64,000 nucleotides of DNA, taken from assembly GCA_002245135.1 (NCBI GenBank), contig NGBS01000585.1:1-64000 (forward strand). Direction: 5' to 3'. How positions within the stretch are numbered: the first letter of the stretch is position 1; the number at the start of each line of letters is the position of its first letter. The DNA is from Proteromonas lacertae (Eukaryota). Below the pieces are notes generated by a model that was given only the letters and a program-made list of their open reading frames with translations, ran no database searches and was not told the origin of the DNA. This document shows, piece after piece, positions 21,333 through 63,797 of the stretch. Both the position numbers and the translations under genes were made by a program.

Positions 21333-23330
21333 ATGGAGGAAGAAGATGAAGATGTATAACCACTTATTTAATTTTTAAAAGGTCGTTTTTGATATTAATG
21401 CTAATAGCAAAAGACTATCGATGTATAGTAAGTGTCAACCAGATGAATTGGAAGGTGCAGATTTTCCAGGTTTGAAACCAAGTATTAATACAGCTGATCA
21501 GATAAGAAATTTATCAGTATATAACATTATTTGTAATTCTTTAGGATTGGGAAGTTTCTTATACTAAAAAAGTTGAAGAAGTGAAGCAAAGATATACACA
21601 ATTAGATAAAGTTTTATCACAGTTGAGGAAAACTGTATTGAATTATAAATTGACAAATATAAACCCATCTGATACAGCAAGTATTCATCTAATTATATAT
21701 AATGAAATAGCAACACATCAAGCCAAATCAAGAACAGTAGGAACAAGAGAAGGAAGGCTAAAAAGAATAACAATGAAATTAAACACTGCATTGAAAGACA
21801 ATGACGAAATAAAACACCAAATAGATGATTTAAGAAGAGATAAAATACGTCGAACTAAAGTAGTAAAAAGATTAGAAAAGAAATATAGAAATAAACAAAA
21901 TGATAATGATGAACTTCAAAGACAATTGGATGAAGCAAATGAAGCAACAAATCAGTATATATAATAATTATTATTTAAATAGAGCTAAATTAGAAGCAGT
22001 ACAAATCCACGAAACAATAAAAGAAGAATTAGCAGAATTTGATGAATTCTGGATGGAAGGAATCAAAGCATTAGACAGACAAAAACAAAAGATGGAACAA
22101 GAAGAACAACGATTAATAGCAACAAGAACAGCGATGGCTGTAGCAGAAGAATGGCATGAAGATCCAAAGATAACAAAATTAAAAAATTACAATACGTTAA
22201 TGTTTTGGGATTGTGCTAAGAAAGGAATTGACTTGAAGGCTCAAGATGAGCAAGCTAGAGAATATGAACGAGCATTTGAAACAATGGCTGACTCATCTGG
22301 AATTAATGATTATCAACAGATTATTGATACAATTGCTGAATTTGAAGATGCTAATTTTTCATCTGTTCAAAGAATATCTGCTTTAAATGATGAATTGACG
22401 AAATTAGAAACAGAATGTTCAGCATTGAAAGAGAAATTGTCAGAAGCTAAATTATCACAAGGAGGAACAAATCATGAAAATAGAATCAAAATATTAAATA
22501 ATTTGAATAATGAAATTCAACAGTCAGAACAAAAAACAGAAGAATATCATCAATCATTAACAAAATCACAATTATTGCTACAACAACTAAAAAGATCAAT
22601 TTCAACAATATTTAAACGTGTAGGTTGTGAAGATGAGATTTTATTAAAGGAATTTTCTATTCAAGGAGTAACTGAAACAAATGTATTAAATATAATGGGA
22701 GTAATTGAACAAAGAGTGATGGAAATAGCTCAAATGTATTATTTACAACAAAAAGGTATTTTACCTGAATTAATTGAACAATGCAATTCACTATCTAGTA
22801 ATTCACCTCCACCAAAATTGAATATTGATGAAAATACAACAGCTTTTAAAGGAAGACAATCTTTAATTAATGCAGTACAACCATTACATCCTCCTCAAGT
22901 ACCATCTGTTACTGAAATACCTGATGAAACTGAAGATGACAATTACAATAATACAAATAATAATACAGGAACAATTGGTAGTTTAAGAAATAATGATAAT
23001 AATGATGCAGTTCCATTGTCGTTAGAAGAAATAAAAAAATCTGCAATTCAAACAGTTAATAAATTATATATAACCAATAATAATAATACATTAGTAAGAG
23101 CTCCACCTCCAGCAATGAGTAGAATTGGTAGTAGAGTAAGTATAGTTTCACAAACACGAAGTCATGTTACTACACCTTCAGGATTAAGACCTCACTTGTT
23201 AAGAAATGCACCAAGTCTTGCCGCTGCTAGAAGAAAGTTGAGTATGAATAGTAATGAGTCTGGAACACCCAATACTGGAGGTGGTAATACTCCAATTAGT
23301 AATAGTCCAAGTCAACAGGAATTAAATTAA
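21333..23330 (+). CDS. Outer dynein arm docking complex coiled-coil subunit (DC2/ODAD1/CCDC63-like)
   Basis: Long coiled coil with FEDANFSSVQRISALNDE and GVTETNVLNIMGVIEQRVMEI motifs. Confidence 0.75.
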
Positions 23331-24844: not shown

Positions 24845-27196
24845 TTACATCAACAAGAACATAGCAAATACAGCTACAAACAATGCCATCTTGACTGATG
24901 CTGTAAATGCACCTTTAGGAATAGGACAAGTAAAATCACTCTCCTTACACTTATCAAGAGGTGGTTTTGTTGGTATAACACTGGTATAAGAAGTAGCAGA
25001 TAGTTGATAAGGTGAACGACCAACATTAACACATGGACCACAGTTGCAGACATCTGTGCAATGGTCATCGGGAGTGCACCAACCAAATACACCAACATAA
25101 TAATGACCTGGACGAAATAATGAACTATTGGTGAATATATCAATATATCTGATTTCTACTTGAGCTAGTTTGTAAGTATAATCATATATTGTTGGTTTTT
25201 GAAAACTACGTGATACTAGTAATTCAGGCCAAGAATAGTAAGCAGGACACTATTAATAAAATAATCTTTAAATTATACTTCTTCAGCATCTAAATAACTA
25301 TTAAGTTCTACACGAATATTCTCAGTGTTATCTTGTACACAGAATTGATAATATTTATATCCATTTGCTGCAACAGTATCTTGTGGTGGATTTACATTCA
25401 ATATGTTATTACTCTCATCTTCATATTTCAATGTTAATGTGAACTTTCCTCTTTCAGTTTCTCCTTCACATTCTGCTTTTGCAGCAACATAATATACACA
25501 AGCTTCATTTTCATTATATCCACAGTAATTGCTAGTACGATAAACTCTATCATATGCATTGATAAGTCTTGTCATTGTATTTTCATTGTCTTTTCTATTC
25601 AAATACCATCCTTTCATGTTGTAATGTGGATATGGTGAATATAAATTGGAAATCATTAATTTATAAACATTTGTCATTTGATCAACTGTTACTCGGACAT
25701 TCTTACAAGCTTGAGTTGGACTGAATCTGAAATATCGATAATGACCACACTATTCATATAAAATTATTATAAATATAATTTATTATTTATTACCTTCAAA
25801 TCTGATATTTGATATGGACTATTTTCTCTTATATCAGTATAGTCTTTATCTTCAATAAATTCTGGTGGATAGGTAACTTGATTATTACATAAATCTTCAG
25901 CAACTAATGAATTAAAATAAGTATATATGATTATTAAATAAATAATAATATAAAATAGAAATATAAAATCTCTCTTTATTTCCTTCTCTCAATTAATTCT
26001 AAATGTAGGTGAATTCAATGTAATTATTATTATTATTATTATATATTCATTGCAAGCTGTTATTATTTTACTTAATTTACATTATTATTACTATATATTA
26101 TATATTAGTATGTATTAATAACGGCTTTCCTACGCTGGTTCTGACCAGATCAGGTTCAAAGGGTATAATCTCAGTGATATATATACATATATATACATGT
26201 TTATTTAACATTTATGAATAAGAGAGATATAGATAGAGTAAGTAATATTCTTTTAAATGTAAATATATGTATATATCACACCCCTAGCCTTTTTTATTTG
26301 GAAGAGAAGAAATAGAAAATAAAAGAAAATAAAAGATAGAAAGTAATGATGCTATACCCTCAGTAACTGTGACTTTCAATGTAAATTTAGCTGAATCACT
26401 TAATGCACAGCTGGCTGTATCAGTACATCTGTCTTTAATAACCAAATAATAATGACCAATCTTTTGACCTTTCTCATTGGCTGGAATTGTTAATAATTTG
26501 TTGTTCTTTAATCTTGTATCTAATGAATACACATAGTCTTCTTCTGTAGCATCACGTGTATAATGGGATAATAATCCAACTGGAGTTACTTTTGAATTAT
26601 CTGTTGTTAATGAAACTGTAACATTCGAACATTTTTCAACACAGAAATGGTATTTGTGTGTGCTATTTGATCCTAATACTTTTGGATCTAAGTTCTTATT
26701 GGAAATATCAGTGTCTCTGTCAGGAGCTATTTCATAATATATAGTATTACAGAAATATATACAATCAATTAAGGAAACCTTAAGAGTAAATTTTGATTTC
26801 TCATCCTTTGTTGGTACATCACTTCCACAATAACCTAAAATGCCAATATATAAAGGCCCTGGTTCAAATTCTGGATCCCAATGAGAAATAGTGAAATCTT
26901 CATCTCCCCACTCATAAGATGTCCATGTTAAATCATGAAGAGTGGGATTTTTCACATGACGACTTACATATAAATCTGGTTGACCTTCAACGGTATGAAC
27001 CTTTATATTCACATCTTTGCAATATGTTGGAACGTTGACAAAGAAATAACCATAGGTGTTACACTATAAATAAGGTAATTTTCAACAATTATACTTCAAG
27101 CGAAATAACGCTGGTCTCTTGGTCAAAGCCTATTTCAGTAGGTTCCTGTATGGCATTGACAGCAAGAAATAAGCAGATTAACAATAACTTGTTCAT
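24845..27196 (-). CDS. Secreted, probably GPI-anchored surface protein with ~4 Cys-containing PPC-like beta-sandwich repeats; host of TPP riboswitch intron
   Basis: Signal peptide MNKLLLICLFLAVNA. Repeats of Y-x-Y-x-F...PDLYVS...PT..D.TW...G.YY.G..G.C...FTL.V. C-terminal hydrophobic tail KGAFTASVKMALFVAVFAMFLLM*. The exons join in frame across the 25904-26357 intron. Confidence 0.8.
25904..26357 (-). other. Unusually long (454 nt) GT-AG intron
   Basis: Donor G|GTATAG at 26357 and acceptor TTCATTAG|TT at 25904. Splicing gives ...VTVTE-VAEDLCNNQ... in frame. Other introns in the window are mostly ~25-60 nt. Confidence 0.85.
26123..26289 (-). ncRNA. TPP (THI-box) riboswitch aptamer with extended P3
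   Basis: Minus strand reads GGCU-AGGGGUG-[UGAUAUAUACAUAUAU...AUAUAUGUAUAUAUAUCA]-CUGAGAUUAUACCCUUUGAACCUGAUCUGGUCAGAACCAGCGUAGGAAAGCC. Elements: P1 GGCU/AGCC, P2 GGGGUG/UACCCU, J3/2 UGAGA, J2/4 UGAA, P4 CCU/AGG with the GCG bulge, P5 CUGGU/ACCAG. Confidence 0.93.
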
Positions 27197-32098: not shown

Positions 32099-33610
32099 TT
32101 ATCTGATTATTATATATCTTCTGTACGTTCTAAGTGAAGCACAATAAGTACATTGTGCATGATCTTGATTGAAATGAGTTTGTTGTTTTTTCTTATGGCA
32201 TGAAGTGCATTCTGTAATTCCATTACCATCTGTATCTATTACATCCCAATCATGTATTTGTTTTTTTATATTTACTATTTTTCTGTTATGTAAAACTGCA
32301 CAAAGTAAACATATGATTCTTCCATTCGATAAACTCTCATAATAATATTTGTTAGTACTTCTTAACTTTCTTCTACAATTTCCATCTTTATAAGAAAACA
32401 TTTCAAATGGATTTTTATATGGATGAGGATTTTCTATATCATACCAGCATTTATATCCCAATTCTTTATTATTAGGATCAAAATATTCAGGTTGAGGAGG
32501 CATACAATTATACGTTAATCTTTCTTCTATTTCTTTTTTATTAATATCTTTAGGAACAGAATAACTCCAACCTTTTGGTTCTTGATAAAGATGTTTTTCA
32601 AATAAATGTCTTAGTCCTTCAGGAATATCATTATTTCTTAAATAAACATCAATTAAACGTTTGTATACAGAATCTACATCTTCAACTATATTACTACTTT
32701 GAATCATTTTAATAGCATTAGTTGTTACATCATTTCTAACATTTTCATCAACATTAGATGACATTATACTATACGAATCAGATGGTGGTGGTTGAGTTAA
32801 TGGTTTAGGTGGAGTTAATGGTGGTTGAATTATTGTTTCAGGTATAGTTACTGAAGGTGAATAAGTATTAAGTATGCCAGGATTATTAATTGCATTATTT
32901 TTAACTTTACTTTTATTAATAACCAGATGTTTTGAACGTTGAACAGCAACTACATTTGAATTTTGTTCAATATTCAATTCTTTCTTTTCATGCTTTACAC
33001 CATTTGATTGTGATATTATTGTTTCATCAAGTGTTGATGGAAGTAAATAACCAGAATTAATCACTTCTGCAGTATTAGACATTAGTTCATCAGTTATATT
33101 ATGGTTCATGTTATTAGTATCATGCGATCTATCTACTTCCATTTCATTGATAGGAAATATTGTTCCTATTGCTGTAACTAACCTTTCATTATCTATACTT
33201 ATGTTTTCATCAATTGGTAGTGAAATATCTACACGATTGTTGGTTCTTCTATTCTCTAAATTGTCATTGTCAACACTTATAAGAGATGGTTGCATTAACG
33301 GCTGCAACGTGCTATGATCGTCTTTTATCAACACTTTAGCACCACTCTTGTTATATATAACGGTATTTGACTGATTTTTACATTCTTTTACAGCTTCATT
33401 ACCTTCATTAATTTCATCTCCATCGTCTTTATTTATGCAATCTTTTGTGAGTTTAACTCTTGTAAATAAATCATCTACCTTGTTTATCTCATCTGATAGT
33501 TCATCACAACCTACATCTAAGCAAAATGATAAAGTAAATAAAAACTTTATCCAAGAATATGTATGTCTATCTGAAATATCATCAAATGTATCGTAATAAG
33601 TGTTATTCAT
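32099..33610 (-). CDS. Intronless orphan family copy 1 (C-terminal Cys-rich domain)
   Basis: 503-aa uninterrupted ORF with EIEERLTYNCMPP...NGRIICLLC...DWDVID...CxxC...CxxC. Confidence 0.75.
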   Translation of the reverse strand: MNNTYYDTFDDISDRHTYSWIKFLFTLSFCLDVGCDELSDEINKVDDLFTRVKLTKDCINKDDGDEINEGNEAVKECKNQSNTVIYNKSGAKVLIKDDHSTLQPLMQPSLISVDNDNLENRRTNNRVDISLPIDENISIDNERLVTAIGTIFPINEMEVDRSHDTNNMNHNITDELMSNTAEVINSGYLLPSTLDETIISQSNGVKHEKKELNIEQNSNVVAVQRSKHLVINKSKVKNNAINNPGILNTYSPSVTIPETIIQPPLTPPKPLTQPPPSDSYSIMSSNVDENVRNDVTTNAIKMIQSSNIVEDVDSVYKRLIDVYLRNNDIPEGLRHLFEKHLYQEPKGWSYSVPKDINKKEIEERLTYNCMPPQPEYFDPNNKELGYKCWYDIENPHPYKNPFEMFSYKDGNCRRKLRSTNKYYYESLSNGRIICLLCAVLHNRKIVNIKKQIHDWDVIDTDGNGITECTSCHKKKQQTHFNQDHAQCTYCASLRTYRRYIIIR

Positions 33611-34094
33611 TAAGTGCTAATGATATGAAAGGATTTTTAAAATTTTGGAATAAAAAATAGAGTCGTTTTAGTGGAATTTTACATGAAAATTTGAAGCAAT
33701 AAATGATTTGTATATATAGTTAACTATGAATAACAGAAAGTTAACATGTAGTATATATAGTTATTTAAGAAAATAATCATGCTCTGTAGAATGTAGTTAT
33801 TAATAACATGTATAAGAGTATTTTTAAATCTGTTATAAACAATTGGTGAAAATATCAAACATGATGAATTCTTTGAGTGATTTAGATTACACCATCACTT
33901 ACAATGGAAGATATTATTTTGAAAATATTTAGCTGTATTCATCTGACATATATACAGCTAAATAGCGTAGTGTTGTTATTATTCTCAATATTTTAAATAT
34001 CTGATTGTAAAACAAAAATAAATACAATTAATAGTTGTAGTATATATTCTATGGATATAATATTAAGTATATAATAATAGAGAATGAATCTCAT

Positions 34095-35423
34095 CTAGTT
34101 TTTTTCTTTTTCCTTTTTTCTTTTTTCTTTTTCATTGAAATATTTTTGAAATTTAACTATTCTTGAACAGAGACTACATCTTCCTTTTCGCAAACCACTT
34201 TTCAATCCAAAATGTAATAGTTTTTTATATTTATTACATGTATGACAAAAATCTGTATCATCACTATCTTTATCTAATACATCCCAATCTTGAAGAAGAT
34301 CATTATCTTTTAATTGTATATTATTCAGAACAGCACATGGAATACAAATAATTCTTCCATTTGATAGATTTATACATGAAAATTTGTGTAGTTTTTCTAA
34401 TTTTTTTTTGACACATTCATCAACAAATACCAACATCTGTAATGGATTTTTATATGGATGAGGATTATCTTCATCATAGCAACATTTATAACCCAATTCT
34501 ATATTATTAGGATCAAAATATTCAGGCAGAGGAGGCATACAATTGTACGTTAATCTTTCTTCTATTTCCTGTTGATCAATATTTATAGGAATATAATAAA
34601 CTGATCCGTCAGGTTGTTGATATAAACAATCCATAATCATTTTCTTCAGTTTTTCGTCTTTCATACCAACTATATTATATTTTTTGATATATTCTGCCAT
34701 ATGTTCTTCATAACTTAAATCTGTATTTCCAAAAAATTGGCTTTTACTTCCATTTAATAGCGGATACTCTGAATTAACAGAACCTGATGGTGATAATGGT
34801 GAAGAAGGTAATGGTGATGAAAGTAAAGTATTATTACAAAATGAATATTCTCCTTTAGCTTGATAATTATCACTGATTATAATACTGGGAGGTTGATCTT
34901 TTGTTGCAGGTGTATTCCAAGTAAATACCTGAGCAGTATTGGATATTTGTTTATCATATATGTCACTGTCACTGTCGTTATCATTTGGCTCATGTTCTTC
35001 CATTTCATTTCTTTGAATTGGTAGATTAACGCTACATTGAGTTTGTTCATTTTTGTGTTGAATTAACACTTTAGCTGCTGCTCTACATTTTATTGTTAAG
35101 TTGTTACTGCTACTTAAAGATGTAGATGATTTGATAAAATCATAATTAATTCGAGAATCAATAGGAGAGAGAGGATCTGTGTCAGATAATAATTGACTTT
35201 CTTCAAAAACAATTTTTGGAGAAGATGAAAGAGAGTGTTTCCATATGTTCATATTTAATACTTTTATTCCATTATTAGTTTTTATAAACTTTTGAAATTC
35301 TCTTTCATCTTGATTTTCGAATTTTCTACGAGGTAATTGTAAACTCAGTTCTTCAGAATTTGTATCACTTGAATAGTTAGCAAATCCAAAATTGTAATAA
35401 TAGTTTACTACAGAACTTGCCAT
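34095..35423 (-). CDS. Intronless orphan family copy 2
   Basis: Same C-terminal domain as copies 1 and 3. First ATG at 35423 (MASSVV). Confidence 0.75.
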   Translation of the reverse strand: MASSVVNYYYNFGFANYSSDTNSEELSLQLPRRKFENQDEREFQKFIKTNNGIKVLNMNIWKHSLSSSPKIVFEESQLLSDTDPLSPIDSRINYDFIKSSTSLSSSNNLTIKCRAAAKVLIQHKNEQTQCSVNLPIQRNEMEEHEPNDNDSDSDIYDKQISNTAQVFTWNTPATKDQPPSIIISDNYQAKGEYSFCNNTLLSSPLPSSPLSPSGSVNSEYPLLNGSKSQFFGNTDLSYEEHMAEYIKKYNIVGMKDEKLKKMIMDCLYQQPDGSVYYIPINIDQQEIEERLTYNCMPPLPEYFDPNNIELGYKCCYDEDNPHPYKNPLQMLVFVDECVKKKLEKLHKFSCINLSNGRIICIPCAVLNNIQLKDNDLLQDWDVLDKDSDDTDFCHTCNKYKKLLHFGLKSGLRKGRCSLCSRIVKFQKYFNEKEKRKKEKEKN

Positions 35424-35614
35424 ACTTATGTAATGAAACGAAAAAACAAAATTTTTGTTTCTAAAAATAGTGCCGTTATAGAAAAAAATTAGGTAGAGGA
35501 ACAACTCTACTAATATCGCATTTTGTTAAAGATACTTATTACTAATGTATGTAGCATACAATCCAAAAACTTATTCTATACAATAAATCAAGGTTTTTGA
35601 CTTTTTAATTTCAT

Positions 35615-35735
35615 TTAAAATACTAATCAAATGTAAGTTACACAGCATATATTACTATATTTTTAACATAAGTTCGTTTATCTAATACTATAACGGTTTT
35701 GGCAGTCAGATTGCGACTCTAATCGCTAACTGACA
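35615..35735. repeat. 121-bp dispersed direct repeat, copy A (ends in GTCAG...CTGAC hairpin)
   Basis: Nearly identical to 37913-38033. Confidence 0.9.
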
Positions 35736-36176
35736 AACTCTAACATAATTAATTATAGTATTTGAAACACTGATCAGTTGTTGGAAATATCAAACAATGG
35801 AAGATATTATATTAAAAATATTTATGGATGTAGATATGATAATGATAATGTATCTAGAGTTTATTTATACTTTAGAATATTCCTTATAATGTTTTTATAA
35901 CTATATCTGGCATATCTTCTATATTTTCTTCAGCTGGCTTAATATTGTATAATCAACGTATGCAAGTTGGTAATAGTTATTTAAAGATGGTATACTGCTG
36001 TTCTAATAAATAGGGAAAAGCTTTAGAATATTAAAAAATATCAAATAATCTAGCCTTCAATATAATATGACTATTTATATAAATACAAACACAAACACAT
36101 AATTTATATTTACTATATATGGCGATAAGAATATGATTAATGAGTGAAATATTGTATGCGTTTAATTATGTATCTT

Positions 36177-37304
36177 TTAAACATCTAAAATGCATCTTGT
36201 ATATGTTCTACGTGAAGCACAAAAAGTACATTGTTTACTATGCTTGATTTGATTGTAATGCATGTCTTTTTTTAATTTGCTACATCCTTTACATCTTCTA
36301 GTATGACTATAAGTATCTATTACATCCCAATCTTGTAATTGATCTATATGTAATATGTTGCTATGATTCAAAATAGCACAAACAAGACAAATAATTCTTC
36401 CATTTGATAGATTTTTGCATGAATATTTTTGTAGTTTTTCTAATTTTATTCTTTCATATTTATCAACAAATATAAACATTTCAAATGGATTTTTATATGG
36501 ATGAGGATTTTCTATATCATACCAGCATTTATATCCCAATTCTTTATTATTAGGATCAAAATATTCAGGTTGAGGAGGCATACAATTATACGTTAATCTT
36601 TCTTCTATTTCTTTTTTATTAATATTTTTATGAATTTTATAAACTGCTCCATTTGGTTCTCTGTAGAGAAGTTTCTTAAACAGAGTTGTTATTTTATCAT
36701 TTAAATCATTGAAGTTATTTCTTTTGATAAAATTATTCATAAGTTCCACAAAACTTAAATTATTTGGAGGAGGTATAAATGGTCTTGGAGGTGGAACAGT
36801 TAATCTACCATCACTAGCAATTACTAATAAATCACATACACTATTATTCAAAAGTGAATTTCCTTCCGTGTTTGTCTGTATTTCATTATTTTCAACAAAA
36901 TCTAATTCTAATTCTTTTAATTCAGTTAATGGAATGGATGGTGATGAAGAATTACCTAAAACATCATAAAAAGAGTCAATCTCAGAAAGGCTTCTTTCAT
37001 AATCACTATCAACATATTCATTTTCTTCACCCATATTATTTCCATTATCTTCGATAAACATTGCTTTATTAGCCTGAGTTTCTCTTAAATCATAATTTGG
37101 ATATGGAGAACTAATTTCTTCGATTCTGTCACTTTTTTTTGCTCTCTCTCCATTATTGCATTTTAAAACTTTATTCATAACCTGTTCAAAACCCAAATAA
37201 TCTCTTTTCTTGCTTTTCAACAAGTTATTTTCAGTAGTCTCTTCTATTGAATTACCGAAGATTAAGTCATGATTATATACATTTAAATGTGAATTATATG
37301 CCAT
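36177..37304 (-). CDS. Intronless orphan family copy 3
   Basis: 375-aa ORF with the same C-terminal domain. Confidence 0.75.
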   Translation of the reverse strand: MAYNSHLNVYNHDLIFGNSIEETTENNLLKSKKRDYLGFEQVMNKVLKCNNGERAKKSDRIEEISSPYPNYDLRETQANKAMFIEDNGNNMGEENEYVDSDYERSLSEIDSFYDVLGNSSSPSIPLTELKELELDFVENNEIQTNTEGNSLLNNSVCDLLVIASDGRLTVPPPRPFIPPPNNLSFVELMNNFIKRNNFNDLNDKITTLFKKLLYREPNGAVYKIHKNINKKEIEERLTYNCMPPQPEYFDPNNKELGYKCWYDIENPHPYKNPFEMFIFVDKYERIKLEKLQKYSCKNLSNGRIICLVCAILNHSNILHIDQLQDWDVIDTYSHTRRCKGCSKLKKDMHYNQIKHSKQCTFCASRRTYTRCILDV

Positions 37305-37912
37305 TTTTATGATTTTATAAAAATATATTCGTTTTATAAAAATTACAGTAGAAAATAAACCACAACAACGAAAATATTTAACATGTTATTAAATATATTT
37401 TATCTGGTTATTAGAATATATGCTGCTAAAAGAATAAATTTAAATATACTACAACAGTAAATTGTATATAGTGTATTTAGAATATAATATAGTGTTTCTG
37501 AGTAGAATAATTATCTATAATAAATATTAAATGATGTTATAATAGTTGTAATGTACTTGTGGTTAATTATAACTTTACGTAGTAATCCATACACAAATAC
37601 ATAATCATAGTATGAAATGTAGTTGATAATGAATATCAAATATGCGATTCAAAGCTTCTACTCTATTAATTCTATCTTCTTCTTTAATTTACACTCACTC
37701 TATATCTTTTATGTACTTTATATGCATATCAGAAAGTGTATTGTTCATAATATCTATTATATTTGTAGTGGATTTATAATTGTTGATTATCTCTCTTTTT
37801 CATCTCAAACTTGTAATTGCTTGGTTATATCATCTTCATACATCAGGAAATGAAACATATCACAAATACTAGGTATAACAGCTAATATTTTCTTTACATT
37901 TTTTAAATTCAA

Positions 37913-50934: not shown

Positions 50935-53900
50935 ATGATTTCGAGTTTAGGTAGACGTATACATTATTTGTTTAATCACTGAAATAGTTCCACCAGAAAT
51001 TACAAGATTAGAACCTTCTTGTGGACCAAAGGATGGTGATACAGAAATTCATATACATGGTGAACATTTTCCAAAAGTTAAAAAAGCTAAAGTGATATTC
51101 AAATATAATAGAGACACAAGAACAGCACTTGGTTCTGTGTTGAGTACAACAGAAATTGTATGTAAAACACCAGGATTTCCTTTTTGTTGTGATGCTACAG
51201 TAGAAGTTTTAATTGACAAAATACTTACTAGAAGTGGTAAAAGATTCCATTTCTATGATGAATTGTATATAACTAAAGTAGTACCAGAAGTAGTAGCTCA
51301 AGAATGTCCATCTAAATTAAGTGTTTATGTAATGTGTGAAAGTTGGTCTATTTCCAACGATTGGACTAAAATTCCAAATTTAATACCAAATTATTCACCA
51401 GATGACACAAAATCTCCTCATTTCACTCCCTTTATTCGATTCATTTATGGAGATGGGAGACATGTTGAAGTAGAAGGTGTAGAAACAAGAGATTCAGAAC
51501 ATCGAATATTATTTACTTGTGAGCCGCCAATAGAGAGAACTGGTAAGATAATCACAGCAATTACACTGAATGGTATAGATTGGTCAACTAGACATAGAAG
51601 TATATTGTTTATACATTATTATATTAATAAAATAGATTGTAGTGATCTCTTAGAAATCTATGCTGAACCAAAATACGATAGAATTGTACCAGCGTGTAAA
51701 CCAATCCATGGAACAAAACATTTTGAAATAATTGGCTCGTCTATAGTTCAAACTAAAGATATAAAGATCACATTCTACAGATCTGACAATGATCAAAAAT
51801 TAGTTACAGTTACAGGTGATTGGGTAGATGACGGTCATATAGTATTTACATTAGGTGAATCAGTATATGAAGGTGAAAGTTATGCAAAAATATCAGTAAA
51901 TAATATGTTTGCAAATGTGAAATTACCATTTTATTTCTATCGATTTCCTAAGTATAAATCATGTAGTCCTGAATATGGATCATCAAATGGTGGTACTCCA
52001 GTGAGATTAGAATGTTTTCTAGAAGTTGTATATATTTATTTATTTATTTATTTATTTATTTATTATATGAATAGTTTGATAGAGATGGTGAGACTACACA
52101 TAGAAAAGATCTCAAAGATACTTATATAAAAGACACTAATGATATTACAGTAAGATTAATGCACAGTGGTCCATCAGTGAAAAACAATGTAATTGGTGTA
52201 GTTAAAGGTGAATTAGATATCAATGGTGATTTGCTATTTGAAACTCCTCCAAATATTAACTCTTTAGCTTATTATTATAGTAATGTCGAAGATGTGGATA
52301 TTGAAGTGGCTTTTGATGGTAAAACATATAATGGTGATTTGATATTTAGATATTATCAGTATAGATATTATATTATATTATATTTGTATATAGAGCTCCT
52401 ACTATTTTAGTTGTATCTGAAAATCCAATCTCTTGTGTTGGTGGAACTCCATTTACAGTATTATTGGCTGAACCAGTTCCAAATACAAAGACTTATTCAA
52501 TTAGATTCAAAGTTGGTGATGAATATTATATTCAACAAGCCGATACTGTTATTGAAAATGATCCTGATGCTAAACAGAAATTGGAATGTATGTTACCACA
52601 AGTGAAGAATGTTCCAGAAAGAGGATGTGAATGTGTAATTGATGTATCCTTTAATGATTTGGATTATTCAAAGTGTTATGCTGAAACTTATACTGTTCAT
52701 ATGTTTTTAACTCCAATACTGGTGAAGATAATACCAAATTTTGCACTTTCCAGTGGTGGTGATAAAATTGAACTACAATTTGATGGAATGGATACATATT
52801 TATCAGAATATGAACAATATAAAAACAAAAGTAAAAACTTCAGTAATTCACCAATAACTAATAATGACAATATCAAATCATTTAAATTAATTAAAGTGAA
52901 ATGGTCATGGCAGTCAAAGAGATATCAAGATCTATATACAGTTGATACTGTTGTTATTGAAAATGGTAAAGTATATGCATTTGTACCACAATGTTTAGCT
53001 GATACTCCTTTAGTAAGAGTGGATGTGGCATTAGGTGATTCCCCATTTGCACCATCTTCATGTATATTGACTTATTTTGAATTGCCTGAATTAACATCAT
53101 TATCTCCATCATCTGGACCAATTAGTGGTGGTTCTACTTTGAGTATTAAAGGAAATGGATTTGTTGATACTAATTATATAACTGTTAGATTTTTTAATTT
53201 AAATTTTAATTGTACAGTTGATGGTACTTATGTGAATGAGAATGAAATATTATGTGTTACTCCTGTTGCAAATATTGTTGGTTTTACTACGATTGAAGTA
53301 TCATTAAATGGTCAACAATTTAATCTTCAAAAACCATTGTTATTCTTATTTGTTCAATTACCTTTTTCTATTACATTACAACCGAGATATACTATGTATA
53401 ATACGGCTGCTCGTATTTCGTTATTAGCAAAAGATATCTTCTATCCAGGTGAATTATATGTAAAAATGACAAATGATTCAAATAAGCTTGAATATATTGT
53501 ACAAACTAAATACGATCCTGTTTTAGAATGGACTAAATATTTCAATATGTTTGAAAAGGCAGTAAATGGTGTATTTTCAGATGCTGTAGTTGGTGTTGGA
53601 TTAAAAAGATTGACAGATGTAATAGCTAAAAGAATGACAACTGCATTAAATACAAATACAGCCTATTTTATCACTCCAGACAACATACCGCCAGGTAAAA
53701 TTACATTTCATTTAAGTAGTGATGGTCAACAATTCAAATTAGCTGATGGTTATTTTGATGTGATTGATAATCCAGCAGTAAAGAAAATTACACCTACTGC
53801 CTTACATTGGAGTGGTGGTGAAAATATTAGAATAGTAGGAGGTAATCTACAAGATCTAGGTTGTATTAAAGTAAGGTTTACTTATCCAGAAACAAATGAA

Positions 53901-56657
53901 ACAATATTAGTAGAAGGAAGATCAATAAAAGGAGGTATTGAGTGTATAAGTCCTGAATTCTCAAAGTGTGGTGATTGGTATTATTCTGTTACTTTAGATG
54001 GAATAAAATTCATTACATCTTTACCAATACCAATATATGGCAAGATAGTAATTGAAGAAATATATCCAAATCTTGGTACAATTCGTGGTGACACAATGGT
54101 GACTGTTACTGGAAGTGGATTTGCTGATTCAGGTGTAGCAAAGGCAAGATTAACAGTAATAGATAATGAAAATAATGTATATGAACCATTAGTAGTATCA
54201 GGTAAATATATTGATAATAAAATAGTATTTACTACTCCTCGATTTCCTTCATCAGGTAAAGCAAAAGTGGAAGTAAGTATGAATAATAGAGATTGGAATT
54301 GTGTCTATCAAAATAGAAACGGTGATACAGATATTATATACTTTTTAGTATATCCTCAACCTGTTATAACAAATATTCAAATTAGTGGTAATTATAGAGA
54401 TATAGTTCATATTGAAGGAAACAATTTCTATTCTTACGGACCTGTTATTGTAAGATTTAAACCATTAGATGGTGAAAAGAAAGGTGAAAAATTAGATGTA
54501 AATGGACAAATATGGAGTTCTTCTGTAATTGAATGTAAATCACCATCATTATATACAAAATGTTGTATAATAGAAATAAGTCTAGATGATAAACATTATA
54601 CGAGACAGAAAATAGGAATTGAATTTAAAGTAATACCAATTATAACAGCGATTAGCCCAAGTTGGGGACCTCTTTGTGGAGGAACAACTTTAACACTAAC
54701 AGGAGAGAATTTTGAGAATACTGGTAAAATCGTTGTGTCATTCTCCTGTGAATGGGGTGGAGATAGAAGAGTATTAGGATTATTCACTGAAGATGGTACA
54801 ATACAGTGTCAAGCACCATCATTTTTAGATTGTCAAAGAATGAGAAGGCATAAGAATTTGAATGTGAAAGTGGATGTATGTTTGTTAGGTGGTAGAACTA
54901 TTAGAACATTGCCACTACTAATTCCATTGAAGATATTTAGATACTACGATAAAGATCCATTGATATGGGCAGTTAAACCAAAAGATGGACCAGTTTATGG
55001 AAATTTTGCAATGTTTCTTGAAACTCAACAAGTTCATAACACAAAAGATTTGATAGTGAGATTAAGACATGAAGCAACAGGTGAAACATTTTATATTAAA
55101 CCAAAGTATAAGAAAGGAGGACAATTATCATTAATGGCTCCAGCTTGGGAATATTCCTCAGATGGTACTGTTGCTGTGAATGTTACTTATAATGGACAAG
55201 ATTATTCAAATGATCATAAAAGAGCTAAATTAGGTATTTGGTCTACATGGCAGAATAGACCAGGAGCTGCAAAGAATCAATCACAACAACAAACCAAAAG
55301 TTTTGATAATCCAATGGATATAACAGGAGGTACAGCTGAGAAGTATGTTAGTTTGAAAGTTATTAAAGAGAATACTGAAACTGATTATTCTCTTAGACCA
55401 ACTAGTAGAGTATGGAAGATTAAAGATTCTCCATTTGCACTACCTTCACCAGAGACTGTTCATAATGATTTATTCTTAAATGATAAAAAACTTCAAGAAA
55501 CAGCTAAGAAAACAGAAGCATTAGCTCCAAAAGATGATAAAAATCCAATATGGTTGAATAAAGGTGCATATTTCACTGAATATGATACACCATTTACTGT
55601 TGAAGATCCGCCAGTAAATGAACAAGTATATCATCCACCATTTACAGAATTTACAGAAATGGATGATGAATTATTAAAGCAATTAGATGCTATGGAATCA
55701 GAAGGTGATTTATACTCAATCCCACAAACTGCCAAAAGTAAATCAAGAGCATCTTTAGTATTATCACCATATCCAATGACAAGAGATCATGAAAGTTTAA
55801 GAGAATCATTTCATCGATCATTATTAGATGCACCAAATATGGCACTTCTTAATGAGCAATTACAGGAGCAACAGAAACCATCTTCGCCTTCTAAGAGCAA
55901 TAGACCAAAAAGTGCATTATTAATAAGACCGAGTACAACAATGACTTCAACAGCAAATAATACATTAAGATCAACTTTAAGAAGTGAAAGTGCTGCATCA
56001 TTGTTATTACCTCCTACAATTCCAAGAGCACAAACAGTTCCTCCTAATCAATCATTATTATCATCAACTACATCATACAATAGATGTATATCACCAAAAA
56101 CACCATCATTCGATAATAACAAAGGAAGATCAAGATCAGTAATGGATAATAATATGTTTAATAATAACAGAACATCTCCAACATCTTCTCTAAGACCACA
56201 ATCAGAATTAGCAATGAATAATTCTTTATGTAATACCAAATTTGATTCAACCACAAAATCAACATTTTATGAAACAGGCAATAGTGTTTATAAACCAACT
56301 CCATTCAATAATACTAATTCTCCAGTAAGGAAAAGAAGAGAAATTACTCCAGCAAGGACAATCAAAAAACCAGAATCTAGATGTCCTTATCACTCTGAAT
56401 TATCAATATATTTAAGAGATTTATTTTTAAATCCATCTGATGGGCATGATACTCAAATATGTTTTATGAGAGTATTACAAACATTTGATAAGAATTGGGA
56501 TAATACCTTAGATTATCGATCATTTTGTATGGGTATTAGAAAATTATTACCTGATATTTCTGAAGAAAGATTAAGTGAATGTTGGAGAGAAGTAGTTCCA
56601 AAAGAAAAAACTCATATCTATTATTCTGAATATATAAATAGTTTAGGTCGTATATAA
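50935..56657 (+). CDS. Large IPT/TIG-repeat protein with C-terminal EF-hand-like motif
   Basis: Repeated (L/I)xPxxGPxxGGTx(L/V)xIxGxxF...VSLNG units; C-terminal DKNWDNTLDYRSF. Confidence 0.8.
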
Positions 56658-56698: not shown

Positions 56699-59600
56699 TT
56701 ATTTTATATTCCAAAATTCTTTAGACAATTCTCTCTTCACTTCTTCTGAAATTCCATTTAGCTCAATTATTCCAATTGATGAAAATGTTTTTAAAAATGA
56801 TTGTAATTGTGATATTTCAATATTCTCTTTTACAGTTATTAAGAATGTTTCTAAACTGTCAAATATTTCTTTATTTTCTATTAGCAATTTTAATCTTTCT
56901 TCATTTAATTCATACTCCTAACATTGTTATCTTATTTAATCTTTTATAGTTTTTTAATCTATCTATAAGCATTTTTAATCCTTCATCACTCATTCCAATA
57001 TCTATTAATTTAAAAACTAATATGTTCATAAGATACTTGATATATTTATTGATGAATAATCGTTATACTTATACACAATTTTACCTATATTTTCACATAT
57101 TATTTTTATCCCTTCATCTCCAATTGGATTATGATGAATTGGAATGTATTCTGAATCTTTTGGTAAGTTTTCCATTAATTCCTTTAATCCTTTACTACTA
57201 ATGTTATTGTAAGCTAAATAAAGACTTTGATAATCAATTTGCTTGATTAATGAAATATGAGAATCATGAATTTTTAAATCTATTTCCATTAGAATTATAT
57301 AGTCTTTATACGTGCAAAATCATTTTCTCCATAATCTTTTCTCTTCTTTTTAATACAATAATTCAAATAATATTCTACTTCTTCATTATTCCATAATAGA
57401 TTTTTAATGTCTATAAATGGATATTCTTCATCTGCTAATGATTTTGAACAAACAGATTTTAATCCATCAATTCTGATGTTATTTCCTTTTAAATTTATAT
57501 TTTTACATTTACCTAAAGAATCTATTATATCTGATAATAAAATCACACTTTCATCATCTATTGATATATTACTCAAATTAATTTCACCATCCTCTATCAT
57601 CAATAGATTCGGGTAGTATAATAATAGGTTAAATCCATCATTACCAATTGGATTATCTATTGAAGAAATGATAAATAGTAAAACAAATATACTATGAATT
57701 AATAATTTTACAAAAGAGTATCTGTCATTATTCACCAAACATTTAATTAAATAATCTATTCCATCTGAATCTATTTTATTATCACTAACATCAAGCACAA
57801 TATTGTCATCATATTTTTCTAGAGATAAATATTGTAATCCATGTGAAGATAATCCCAACTCTATTTTATATTAACAAACAAATAATACTAGAAAAATAAC
57901 AAAAGAAGAAACTACTGAAACAATCACCTGTATTTTTCATAAAATAATGGTGATATGGTGATAATAATTTCATTCCTTCATCTCCAATTTCATTTCCATT
58001 TAAATGAAGTTTATAAAGTTTTGGAATTGATGATAGATTATTAATCAATATTTCTATACTTTTATAAGTCAGTTTATTATCTAAGAGGTATTAACATATT
58101 AAGTTATACTTCTCAAATTTAACTCTGTGATTTCTCTTAATTCATTTAATCTTAATGAAATGAATGATTTGAAGAAATCATCATCAATCCCCATATCACT
58201 CAAATCTAATTGACGCATAGTATTAATTAATTGCGGAATGTCTTTATCTATTAACAACTCTTTACATGGATCGCAATATGTATCTGGAAATTTGGAGAAT
58301 AAGGCTTTTAATGCAAATGAATGAATATTATCATTCCATTGAATATCTATTTTCTTAAGATTTGGATATTTATATAATTTTTCTGATAATAATATCATAG
58401 ATTCATCATTTAAATTCATTTCATAAAGATTTAATTCATTTTTACTATTAATTAATAAATGTAAATATGGAAGCAATAATCTAAAGCCTTTTGAACGACT
58501 GGATTAACTACAACAAAATTAGATCAAAAATAAAATAATATATACATGTAAGATTCATATATTTCATCATGAATGGAATTGATTTTATAAATGATTTAAT
58601 GAAATCAGAAGTAACACCACATGATGATATATTCAATTCTTGTAGATTAGATAATTGAGATAAATATGACCCAAAGAGTGATTGATACTGAAATGGAATT
58701 CTAATATTATCTAAACAAACAAATTAATAATATACTAAAATTCAGTTTTGTTGGATTTATTAATTTCATTATCCAAAAGAAATAATACATTCCTTTTTTG
58801 CAGGCACAAATATGATCTTTATCAATTCTAATTTCTTCATAATGACTAGAAACATTAAATATTATTCTATCTAATTTACATTTATTTCCTTCTTCACATT
58901 GGTGATTAACTTGAAATTTCAATTTCACGTTCTATTGATCTATCAAATTTGTATATTTTCATCATCAATAGCATAGCTAATATTCTTTCATTGGGTTTAT
59001 TATTGTATGATTCTATCAAATCATCTCGAACCTCTTCCCATTTATCACTTTCAAGATTGTATTTTAATGAATTAGTAATTGGTAGAGGAACAATCAAATA
59101 ATCATTATTGAATAACGTTTCTTTTCTTTCATTACACATCATTACATTATCTTCTTCATCTCTCAATATTTCACTCATCTTTATCATCTCTTTTTTCAAC
59201 TCTTTTAAACTCATTCTATTCTCATTGTTCACTTTCAACATTCTTTCTATTATTTCTTTCATTTTATCATCACATTCTATATCAAAACTATATTTACATC
59301 TCACAATATTCTCTTTCGTTTTTCTCATATTATTATCTTCATTGAATGGTAATTTATTGTTATCATCTCATATAAAATACATCCAATTGACCAAATCACA
59401 CTTTTCTCATTACATTCTAATCCATTTAATTCTTCAGGGCTTTTGAAGCATATATCATATAATCTCATATCTTCCTCTTTTCTCAATGTGTTTAACCATA
59501 CATCACAGATCTTTATTTTATCTTCTTCATATATCACATTACTACTCTTCACATTATCAGCTTCTACATCATATTCATTCAACATCATCATAAGATTGGA

Positions 59601-60575: not shown

Positions 60576-63500
60576 ATGGATGCAATTATGTATACTAAAA
60601 AGAGGAACGAATTTGGGTTCCATTGCTACTTTGATGATGTAAAAGGTCAAATACTTCATACTGTTGAACCAACGTATAATTTATAGTAATGTAATATAAT
60701 AGAGGTGAATTTGATGATAAATATATATTTAGAAATCCTACAAGTGTTGAATTAGATACAACTCCTGATATATGTTATCATGCTGTATTGTTTGGATTTT
60801 ATATAAAAATTATAGGTTGGAACAGAAAGAGTCATTTTATGTAATAAAGGTATGCATCATACAGAAGGAGGCTGGCCAAAAGAAGTCGATGTTGATGATA
60901 ATGATGCAAAGAATCGTTTTAGAAAGAAGACAGAGAAGGGTATCGCTGATAAAGATGGATCTGGAGGTACTGCACCTATAGCAGAATCAATAAAACGTTT
61001 AGGACCAGTAATTGTAGAAAGTGTTCGTCAAAATAGTACAATAGATTTATACGAAGAATATTTTGATGGTGAAATGGAAGATCATTCAAGTGAACCACCA
61101 TCCGCTAAAGGTTTAGCCAAATTCAGAGATCCTAACGATGTAAAAAGATCAGCTACCAGTATCAATTGGAATCCAGAAGCTCCTAATAAATTAGCTATAT
61201 CCTATTCAATATTAAATTTTCAAGATCAAAGATTTTTAAATGAAAGAATGCCAGTACAATCCTATGTTTGGGATATTAACAATCCAAACGCTCCAGAACA
61301 AGAACTTGTACCAGCATCACCACTCTGCTGTTTGAAATTCAATAAATCTCCAGATACACTAGTAGGTGGATCATATAATGGTTTAATCACTTTCTTTGAT
61401 ATAAGAAAGTCTGGTGGTAATCCCTGTGAAGTATCTGTAATAGAAAACTCACATCATGATCCAGTATATGATATTCACTGGGTACAAAGTAAGACAGGTA
61501 ATCAATGTGCTTCAGTATCAACAGATGGAAGAGTGTTATGGTGGGATACTCGTAGATTGAATGAACCAACTGATGTAGTTGAATTATTAGATGAATCAAC
61601 AGGACAATTGTTAGGAGGTAGTTCAATGGCATATTTACAAGAAGCAGGTCCAACTAAGTACTTAGTAGGTTCAGAACAAGGTTTAGTTATAAATATCAAT
61701 ATGAGAAACAAGAAACAAGGAGGTGCTTTGACTGTATATGATCCAATAGGTAGACATCATGCACCAATCACAGCAATAGAAAGAAATCCAGCACATCCTA
61801 AATACTTCTTAACAGTAGGTGATTGGACAGCTAGATTATGGGTAGAAGACCTCAGAACTCCGATTATGACTACACAATATCATCCATCTTACTTAACATC
61901 AGGATGTTGGAGTCCAACCAGACCAGGTGTATTCTATGTAACAAGAATGGATGGTGTTGTAGATGTTTGGGATTATTTCCATACACAAAGTGAAGTTGCT
62001 TATTCACATAAGGTTGGTGATTTACCATTATCATCTATTGCAATTCAAGGTGCTACTAGAAATGGAGGTGGTAAATTAGTTGCTATTGGTGATGTTAGTG
62101 GTACAGTAACTTTATTAGAAGTATGTGATAGTTTATCAGTTCCAAGGTCGAATGAGAAAGTAGCGATAGGCAATATGTTGGAAAGAGAAACAAAAAGAGA
62201 AAAGAATCTAAGTGCAAGAATAAAGGAAATAAAGAAGAGACAACAACAGCAAGCATTAGAAAAGAAAGCTGAACAAGATATAGCAAGAGAAGCAAATTCT
62301 GATTCAATGATAGCTTTGTTGAAGAAAGTGGAAGAAGATTTTGATAATTTAATTAATGAAGAAGAAGAGGAGGAGAAGAAAGAAGAAAAGCCAGTTGCTG
62401 AAGCTGTTGCTAAAGAAGGTGATGATAGTAAACCAAAGAATCAAGAGAGTAAAGCAGAATTAGAAGGAGAAGCTAAACCAGCAGAAGGAGAAGTTAAACC
62501 AACAGAAGAAGGTGAAGCTAAACCAGCAGAAGGTGAAGAAAAGCCTGCTGAAGGAGAAGCTAAAGCAGAAGGAGAAGAAGTTAAACCAACAGAAGGAGAA
62601 GAAAAGCCTGCTGAAGGAGAAGCTAAAGCAGAAGGCGAAGAAGCTAAACCAGAAGGAGAAGAAACTAAACCAGTAGAAGGAGAAGAAGTTAAACCAACAG
62701 AAGGTGAAGAAAAGCCTGCTGAAGGAGAAGCTAAAGCAGAAGGCGAAGAAGCTAAACCAGAAGGAGAAGAAACTAAACCAGTAGAAGGTGAAGAAAAGCC
62801 TGCTGAAGATGAAGCAAAACCAGCAGAAGGTGAAGAAGGAAAACCTGTTGAAGGAGAAGCTAAACCAGAAGGAGAAGAAACTAAACCAACAGAAGGAGAA
62901 GAAAAGCCTGCTGAAGGAGAAGCTAAAGCAGAAGGCGAAGAAGCTAAACCAGAAGGTGAAGAAGGAAAACCTGTTGAAGGAGAAGAAAGTAAGGTTACAG
63001 AAGGAGAAAGCACATTTACTGATGATTTCAAAGAATCAGAAAGTAAAGTAGAAGAAGGAGAAGGAAAACCAGTTGAAGGAGAAGAAAGTAAAGTTACAGA
63101 AGGAGAATCACAATTAGTTGATGATTTTGAAGAATCAAAAGCTGAAGGAGAAGAAAAGCCAGAAGGTGAAGAAGAAGCAAAAACTGAAGAAACAAAACTT
63201 CCTGAAGGTGAAGCACAGGCTGAAGGAGAAGATAAGCCAGTAGAAGGAGAAGAAGAAAAACCTGCTGAAGAAGAAGAAAGCAATACAGACGATGCAACAA
63301 AACGAAAATTATCGCCTGGAAGAGAAATGGCAATTGGTCAATATGGTAATATACAAGATGTTCAATTAGAACAATCAACTGAAGAAGCACCAGCAGAAGA
63401 AGCAGCTCCAGTTGAAGAAGAACAACCAGCTGAAGAACAACCAGCAACAGAAGAAGCTCCAACTGAAGAGGAAAAACCAGCTGAAGAAGCACCAGCAGAA

Positions 63501-63797
63501 GAAGAAGCACCAGCTGAAGAAAAACCAGCAGAAGAACAACCAGCAACAGAAGAAGTTCCAACTGAAGAGGAAAAACCAGCTGAAGAGGAAAAACCAGCAG
63601 AAGAAGCACCAGCTGAAGAAGAAACACCAGCTGAAGAACAACCAGCTGAGGGAGAAACACCAGCTGAAGAACAACCAGCTGAAGAAGAAACACCAGCAAC
63701 AGAAGAAGCTCCAGAAGAAGATACAACCGATAAAGTTGAAGAAAGTGGTTTTGATGATGATTTTGCAGATAGTAAAGCAGAAGAATCAACAGAATAA
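60576..63797 (+). CDS. DNAI2: Axonemal outer-arm dynein intermediate chain 2 (IC2/IC69) with long acidic repeat tail
   Basis: YTKKRNEFG, GMHHTEGGWPKEVD, QNSTIDLYEEYF, FRDPNDVKRSA, SHHDPVY, FLTVGDWTARLW, WSPTRPGVF, MLERETKREKNL; WD40 core. Confidence 0.93.
62460..63780 (+). repeat. Coding tandem repeats (EGEAKPAEGEEKP; then EEAPA/EEQPA/EEKPA)
   Basis: Directly visible near-identical blocks such as gaaaagcctgctgaaggagaagctaaagcagaagg, repeated four times. Confidence 0.9.

Follow-up and report, generated by a model that had tools for sequence, protein, structure and literature searches.

A TPP aptamer lies in the third intron of a minus-strand gene for a predicted surface protein in the 64,000-nucleotide stretch of Proteromonas lacertae DNA analyzed here (hereafter the window), and TPP aptamer matches also occur at the same intron in distant homologues. 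The host family is unnamed, has no Pfam assignment, and extends into animals. We consider it very probable that this is a thiamine-related gene family and, with less assurance, probable that the window protein is a noncatalytic capture or binding protein, as predicted. The fuller reading, in which it is a capture receptor for thiamine or a vitamer and splicing of its full-length form is repressed by TPP, is a prediction that we give about an even chance.

Gene model and domain organization of the host protein

The original prediction had given this gene the range 24845-27196, and these coordinates proved exact, with the start codon at 27196 and the stop codon at 24847-24845 on the minus strand. 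Between them, six minus-strand exons separated by five GT-AG introns form an open 585-aa model, predicted from the DNA sequence, with the following features (window positions).

27095..27196, minus strand: exon 1, aa 1-34, with a predicted signal peptide at about aa 1-15 (gene model and hydropathy)
26763..27063, minus strand: exon 2, domain 1, A-type PPC-like, aromatic motif W81-G87 intact
26358..26726, minus strand: exon 3, domain 2, D-type, motifs lost
25904..26357, minus strand: intron 3, the riboswitch intron, 454 nt
25794..25903, minus strand: exon 4, linker joining the two units (gene model)
25279..25749, minus strand: exon 5, domain 3 (A-type, motif lost) and the start of domain 4
24845..25249, minus strand: exon 6, domain 4, D-type, with intact P459-S464, K478-R485, and G507-P511 motifs
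aa 564-585, minus strand: C-terminal end of exon 6, hydrophobic, GPI-signal-like

Introns 1, 2, 4, and 5 are 29 to 44 nt long, compared with 454 nt for intron 3; nine short spliceosomal introns examined in the window measured 27 to 44 nt. The window is AT-rich, with 23 to 32% GC in every 2-kb bin but the last. In unnamed relatives with 80 to 88% identity, the exons match and divergence sets in inside intron 2 and directly past the intron 3 donor; some of these relatives stop inside intron 2.

The hydropathy peaks of the protein are confined to residues 1-17 and 564-585. This pattern is in line with the signal peptide and GPI-like hydrophobic tail that had been proposed and with the claimed lack of a multi-TM transporter region, and no match to PF00474 was found. 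Pfam showed no enzyme family match either, consistent with the earlier statement that no enzyme motif is recognizable. By hydropathy, the protein has an N-terminal signal and a C-terminal hydrophobic end without a cytosolic tail, as expected for a GPI-anchored protein, and G564 or A565 is a plausible candidate omega site by eye. Homologues also have hydrophobic N-terminal leaders. The same hydrophobic C-terminal end is present in the close relative P0198 and in animal members, and several homologues have a TM helix and a cytosolic tail in its place.

Profiles resolved four domains in the window protein, alternating in type as A-D-A-D. Introns 1 (27064-27094) and 4 (25750-25793), both on the minus strand, fall at matching points ahead of the first cysteine in domains 1 and 3, respectively, which indicates that a two-domain unit was tandemly duplicated. 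The four repeats described originally were thus recovered as four domains, but they are two copies of a two-domain unit rather than four equivalent repeats. The PDLYVS and PELLVS motifs occur in domains 1 and 4 only; domains 2 and 3 are degenerate, with profile scores of 32 and 35 bits versus 146 and 181 bits for domains 1 and 4, which were among the seeds.

Twelve other ORFs of the window, flanking the gene, were scanned with Pfam; none of the 12 matched a thiamine-related family, so the neighborhood adds nothing. At 32099-37385 (minus strand), three tandem ORFs (505, 476, and 402 aa) have a common C-terminal cysteine-rich region and divergent low-complexity N-termini. A very large protein with repeated IPT/TIG domains is encoded at 52365-56657 and 50951-52129 (plus strand). 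The WD40 protein at 60816-63797 (plus strand), which continues into about 450 aa of Glu/Ala/Pro repeats, presumably resembles dynein intermediate chain; together with an ODAD1 match at 21876-22799, it suggests, at the sequence level, a flagellated organism. At 57126-57192 (plus strand), a SNORD45-like C/D snoRNA match scored 34.1 bits, below its gathering score of 42 (E = 0.007). TGTTGTT stands shortly past the stop codons of the window gene (24793, minus strand) and of a convergent Rab gene (24702, plus strand) and occurs 50 times in the whole window, too often to point to a lineage; a TGTTGTT core is named near Blastocystis transcript ends in the available part of PMC10690189.

The TPP aptamer and its counterparts in homologous loci

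An Rfam scan of the window at the gathering score returned zero matches, and the aptamer appeared in E-value mode.

26110..26295, minus strand: TPP aptamer RF00059, with P1 formed by 26289-26286 and 26126-26123, a long AU-rich P3 insert, and a deviating L5

The alignment to RF00059 spans the full model (1-105) with 50.0 bits and an E-value of 1.3e-8, and the P1, P2, P4, and P5 pairs are formed. The score is below the Rfam gathering score of 54.3 bits because of the long P3 insert; similar eukaryotic switches with long P3 inserts may escape standard Rfam scans. The window contains the aptamer core pattern a single time and none of 100 shuffles contains it, and the region folds better than all of 200 shuffles (z = -2.8). 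In the L5 loop, whose consensus serves the P3-L5 contact, the third-position A is kept and other positions are off consensus. These results indicate that the intron 3 aptamer is real in sequence and is predicted to bind TPP.

The key test of the original prediction was whether homologues carry the aptamer. With a tight alignment as the query, we obtained five homologous metagenome loci (L001-L005), whose proteins show about 35% identity to the window protein (37% for P0046, the L001 ORF). Rfam TPP matches lie directly past domain 2 in two of the five, L003 (57.6 bits, which passes the gathering score) and L001 (50.7 bits), and these are the only two TPP matches with an E-value up to 1 among the five loci. 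In a tree, the locus proteins form supported groups that exclude the window's, with the window rows on long branches and the deep nodes open. The aptamer is therefore found at the same intron in distant homologues, the outcome that the prediction called for, and this makes the thiamine link family-wide.

The genomic locus L003 has a 370-nt intron following domain 2; a complete aptamer lies within it, and its removal joins domain 3 in frame. The L005 contig breaks off 109 nt inside the corresponding intron, at the same 13 nt with which, by eye, the L003 aptamer opens (no Rfam match). Two loci are uninformative, L002 being without an intron at the aptamer site and L004 ending upstream of it. The intron 3 donor has the same position and phase in the window, in L005, and at the L001 junction, and lies two codons away in L003. 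Introns present in L003 are missing from L001 and L002, which hence look like cDNA. In L001, the AG and the P1 5′ strand are missing and the exon is joined directly to the P2 5′ strand; linking that junction point to the downstream acceptor restores the frame. We read L001 as a probable transcript in which splicing used an acceptor within the aptamer and led to a premature stop; alternatively, it may be an assembly artefact. A branch-point-like CTAAC was seen just upstream of the aptamer in L003 (5850-5856) and L005 (~1445-1455).

Predicted elements of a splicing switch

Only the donor at 26357 joined to the acceptor at 25904 gives the 585-aa form. Intron retention or the use of downstream donors leads to 281 aa and internal acceptors lead to 258 to 281 aa; the exceptions to truncation are two weak GAG acceptor sites that are in frame. 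The following elements surround these sites.

26349..26361, minus strand: productive donor (GT at 26357), predicted to pair in ligand-free nascent RNA with J2/3 and the P2 3′ strand at 26159-26171
26284..26286, minus strand: in-frame TAG where P1 meets P2, which ends the 281-aa retained form, weak possible acceptor, and equivalent of the L001 junction
26054..26127, minus strand: predicted anti-P1 helix, 26127-26116 with 26054-26065
25968..26340, minus strand: predicted intron-bridging helix, pyrimidine tract at ~26340-26300 with purine tract at ~25990-25968

In nascent ligand-free RNA, the pairing that masks the donor has a probability (P) of 0.64 to 1.0, equalled at 3 of 1821 GTA sites in the window. 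The mask is the top pairing site for the aptamer strand in the pre-mRNA and the best of the 95 GGTAT sites of the window, and it is displaced by the long-range helix that bridges the intron once the purine tract has been transcribed (P 0.00-0.22). The anti-P1 helix, which then engages the P1 3′ strand, encloses the competing donors at 26091, 26080, and 26071 and the candidate acceptors at 26091 and 26057; it has P 0.98-0.99 in all nine folds reaching 25960 or beyond, and its pairing is equalled at 20 of 6581 AG sites. The intron-bridging helix is weakly significant, with 93 of 2781 control windows pairing equally well. At six transcript lengths, the aptamer-competent fold lies 3.4 to 6.4 kcal/mol above the free ensemble, which is a switchable gap. 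In the full intron, the accessibility of the competing donors and acceptors hardly differs between the two states. The competing downstream donors score 5.3 to 6.0 versus 3.2 for the productive donor, and the P2 acceptor scores -2.1 versus 6.0 for the distal acceptor on a scale trained on nine introns.

Two candidate roles were considered and set aside. The P2 acceptor as the main decoy in the window is weakened by its low score, and the 281-aa retained form as a functional membrane-anchored isoform is disfavored by a tail that is not conserved and by the missing intact D-type motifs.

In L003, of 10147 windows, the one that pairs best with the P1/P2 5′ strand is an element 240 nt downstream, and this pairing bridges the intron; intron retention leads to an immediate stop, and there is no clean donor mask. 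Forming the aptamer in the full L003 intron costs 25 kcal/mol, and the L003 switch would therefore have to be kinetic. Together, the calculations reveal predicted switch elements, and the folding results are compatible with either direction of the switch.

Taken alone, the donor mask would mean that TPP turns the window gene on. The same thiamine-binding surface protein would then be under an ON switch: without TPP, the donor would be masked and truncated forms produced, and with TPP, the 585-aa form would be made for storage, sequestration, or uptake. The rank of the mask in the pre-mRNA and among the GGTAT sites and the higher scores of the competing downstream donors are consistent with such a switch. 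However, the mask is displaced after transcription of the purine tract, L003 has no clean donor mask and has an architecture like that of the repressed NCU01977 gene, and the eukaryotic TPP switches described in the available parts of PMC5997356, PMC5882874, and PMC10226581 repress. We regard an ON switch as unlikely; on precedent and the L003 fold, repression of the full-length form by TPP appears considerably more probable than activation.

If TPP represses, low TPP would allow anti-aptamer pairing and the long-range helix to favor the weak donor at 26357 with the acceptor at 25904, giving the 585-aa protein. At high TPP, the folded aptamer would favor retention or competing sites and thus products of 258 to 281 aa without domain 4, and the spliced form of L001, with its exon joined to P2, would be a dead-end product.

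Family members and their distribution

A full phmmer search retrieved 213 proteins at E-values up to 0.001. The named members are all "uncharacterized" or "hypothetical" and come from echinoderms, hemichordates, Trichoplax, the annelid Dimorphilus, the chrysophyte Mallomonas, and the EukProt entry Clim_evm, which we take to be Corallochytrium. No homologue with a known unrelated function, which would have spoken against the original prediction, was found among the named matches, and none has a known ligand. Animal members have one A+D unit and a hydrophobic C-terminal end, and protist members mostly have two units and end in a hydrophobic stretch or in a TM helix with a tail.

For the window protein, Pfam gave zero matches above the cut-off; on 21 aligned members, it gave two stray matches, one of them to PF17065 (UPF0669; E = 1.6e-6), against which the window protein scored 15.8 bits, below the cut-off of 27. 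PF03024 (folate receptor) was absent from the window exons and the 21 aligned members, and the PDB contains no sequence homologue of the family at E-values up to 1. A word-indexed protein search with domains 1-2 as the query returned zero matches among longer proteins, and no relatives appeared in prokaryote genomes and viral contigs when narrow patterns, which constitute weak evidence, were used. The literature searched, which was largely open-access, yielded no description of a tandem-PPC riboswitch host.

The proteins P0003-P0150 include many unnamed proteins of 1200 to 3200 aa with up to 16 domain-1 matches. P0162 consists of two complete two-domain proteins joined together, with an internal hydrophobic tail and leader, and probably represents fused tandem genes. 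In P0190, a PF01234 domain precedes the family member.

Predicted fold and a composite binding site

The AF2 model of the sea cucumber member P0010 (pLDDT 86) consists of two β-sandwiches. It matched collagenase PPC and collagen-binding domains with Z of 11.3 to 11.4 and rmsd of 2.1 to 2.6 (95 aligned in the match with Z of 11.4 and rmsd of 2.1) and also matched CUB and SID-1 outer domains; the matched sandwiches are noncatalytic. The anticipated PPC-like fold is thereby supported by the predicted model of a homologue. A single-sequence model of window domains 1-2 was poor (pLDDT 51), and atlas language-model features led to the same clan with recognition values under the reliable range. Prediction of a P0010 homodimer, in which the alignment was not used, scored 0.02, which bears neither way on dimerization. 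The window family resembles PPC (PF04151), UPF0669/C6orf120 (PF17065), ColG collagen-binding, CUB, and SID-1 outer domains in its β-sandwich fold and language-model features; unlike them, it has its own aromatic and cysteine loops and no attached protease or channel.

A-type domains carry an aromatic W-x-x-Y-x-W-G loop, and D-type domains carry P-E-L-L, K-L-A...R, and G-W-C-T-P motifs, whose E, K, and R are invariant in a six-sequence alignment. For the motif count, a script selected 14 four-domain proteins after exclusion of three probable fusions of gene pairs (P0162, where the fusion was seen, and P0170 and P0172, where it was assumed); P0049, in which the units are permuted, was dropped, which left 13. 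The motifs are kept in domains 1 and 4 in three of these (the window protein, P0007, and P0016) and in domains 2 and 3 in six. All four domains keep them in one protein and none in two, and in L003 (1/13) the domain 2 motif is kept and that of domain 3 is partial. Domains 1 and 2 alone or 3 and 4 alone were kept in 0 of 13; 12 of the 13 are consistent with a crosswise pattern. Both motifs are kept in 23 of 27 two-domain-length proteins, seven of them from one sea cucumber cluster, and the truncated product of L001 is among the four exceptions.

The crosswise pattern suggests a composite binding site, in which the A domain of each unit would work together with the D domain of its partner unit. 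The motifs were chosen post hoc and the sequences are related; the pattern may therefore represent only two or three independent events. A pocket between repeats had been anticipated, and the crosswise conservation of the aromatic motif lends it partial support, fitting a predicted interdomain ligand pocket. In such a structure, the two A+D units would fold back on each other to form a single site, with the aromatic loop of domain 1 (W81, Y84, and W86) meeting a domain 4 surface composed of E460, K478, R485, and W508, and two-domain animal members would dimerize to form an equivalent site. The thiamine-binding proteins TbpA and ThiT use aromatics together with an acidic and basic pair. Since the predicted site is composite, products cut at the riboswitch intron would be without a complete site in either subgroup.

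The D-type Glu, Lys, and Arg, invariant as they are, could instead serve catalysis in a thiamine-salvage ectoenzyme, either a TMP/TPP phosphatase or a thiaminase-like hydrolase, and yeasts do possess a thiamine-repressed surface phosphatase. However, the fold matches are noncatalytic sandwiches, the conserved cysteine patterns would be compatible with disulfides, and no enzyme family was matched in Pfam. An enzyme is thus improbable, to about the same degree as an ON switch.

Discussion

A capture receptor remains our preferred reading. The predicted secreted, likely GPI-anchored four-domain protein would capture thiamine or a vitamer at the cell surface, and the captured vitamin would be passed to a transporter or endocytosed; folate receptors likewise have their captured vitamin handed to a transporter or endocytosed. 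The original proposal of a thiamine-capture receptor is strengthened in part, by the aptamer at the same intron of distant homologues and by the lack of a contrary known function among the named homologues.

As far as they are described in the available parts of the papers, known aptamer hosts are THIC, THI4, THI5/NMT1, THIM, symporters, FOLR-domain genes, and UNK1 (PMC4260697, PMC5882874, PMC5997356, PMC9544697, PMC10226581). As in N. crassa NCU01977, Candida DUR31, and the fungal types II and III, so far as these are portrayed in the excerpts of PMC5997356 and PMC5882874, the window aptamer lies in a long internal coding intron whose retained part has an in-frame stop, with competing splice sites and predicted anti-aptamer pairing. 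Unlike in those cases, the host is neither a transporter nor a biosynthetic enzyme, 70 nt separate the aptamer from the donor, the competing donors lie downstream of the aptamer, the predicted donor mask uses the P2 3′ strand, and the P3 insert is long. The intron bridging and immediate stop of L003 resemble the repressed NCU01977 switch as presented there (PMC5997356). With the plant THIC riboswitch, the window gene shares the predicted pairing of the ligand-free aptamer with the 5′ splice site, but, by the available account, it differs in having the aptamer in a coding intron rather than the 3′ UTR and in a predicted outcome of truncation rather than 3′ end choice (PMC10226581).

Among proteins, the closest parallels are algal. 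ATS1/FOLR are, like the window protein, aptamer-linked, signal-peptide-bearing nontransporters, and the accessible text of PMC4260697 and PMC9544697 proposes them for receptor-mediated thiamine uptake; by contrast, the window family has an all-β tandem sandwich fold and no PF03024. By analogy, the window protein most likely works like a folate-receptor-type vitamin capture protein without being a member of that family. Micromonas UNK1 is, by description only, also riboswitch-linked, without a multi-TM region and without a known domain; it is reported to be thiamine-responsive, with its riboswitch in the 3′ UTR, unlike that of the window gene (PMC4260697, in part). Algal UNK1 may belong to the family of the window protein; none of the homologue matches is named as prasinophyte, most matches being unnamed. 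The symporter thiamine transporters SSSP and DUR31 (PF00474) differ in having the 13 to 15 TM helices that the window protein lacks.

Another reading keeps the gene thiamine-related and either makes the aptamer inactive, as in diatoms, or makes the protein a sensor or accessory subunit of a transporter. Thiamine elicited no response from diatom TPP aptamers, whose linked genes are nonetheless true thiamine genes, according to the available part of PMC9544697, which supports the link to function and cautions about regulation. The deviant L5 loop and the small differences between states at the full-intron splice sites are in line with inactivity, and the sandwich fold forms outer domains of the SID-1 transporter, as an accessory subunit might. 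Against an inactive aptamer stand the retention of all core pairing elements, anti-aptamer elements in two distant lineages, and the L001 junction inside the aptamer, and we rate this reading no higher than the ectoenzyme. Finally, two tandem genes, one for a 281-aa protein with a hydrophobic tail and an aptamer in its 3′ UTR and a separate one for domains 3-4, would suit a retained frame whose last residues are hydrophobic and whose stop codon falls within the aptamer, as well as the two-domain members and tandem pairs of animals, but this is highly improbable given that the second gene has no in-frame ATG, relatives with 88% identity do not conserve the tail, the corresponding intron of L003 is spliced out in frame, and four-domain homologues without introns exist (L002, P0002, P0007, and P0016).

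With capture of the vitamin as the preferred function, the broader proposal is that an ancient eukaryotic surface family of tandem PPC domains comprises dedicated thiamine capture receptors with a composite site, under a splicing riboswitch in several protist lineages, with surviving members in echinoderms, hemichordates, placozoans, and annelids; we consider this as apt to hold as to fail. A hypothetical animal member still carrying the aptamer is scarcely to be expected. What is new is the host, a different and undescribed family for a riboswitch class already known in eukaryotes from biosynthesis genes, solute symporters, and a few unexplained algal genes. The proposal provides a testable ligand for "uncharacterized" genes of sea urchins, sea cucumbers, starfish, acorn worms, and Trichoplax, and a single 32-kDa protein would be amenable to assay. 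It bears on how auxotrophic protists and marine invertebrates may gather scarce vitamin B1.
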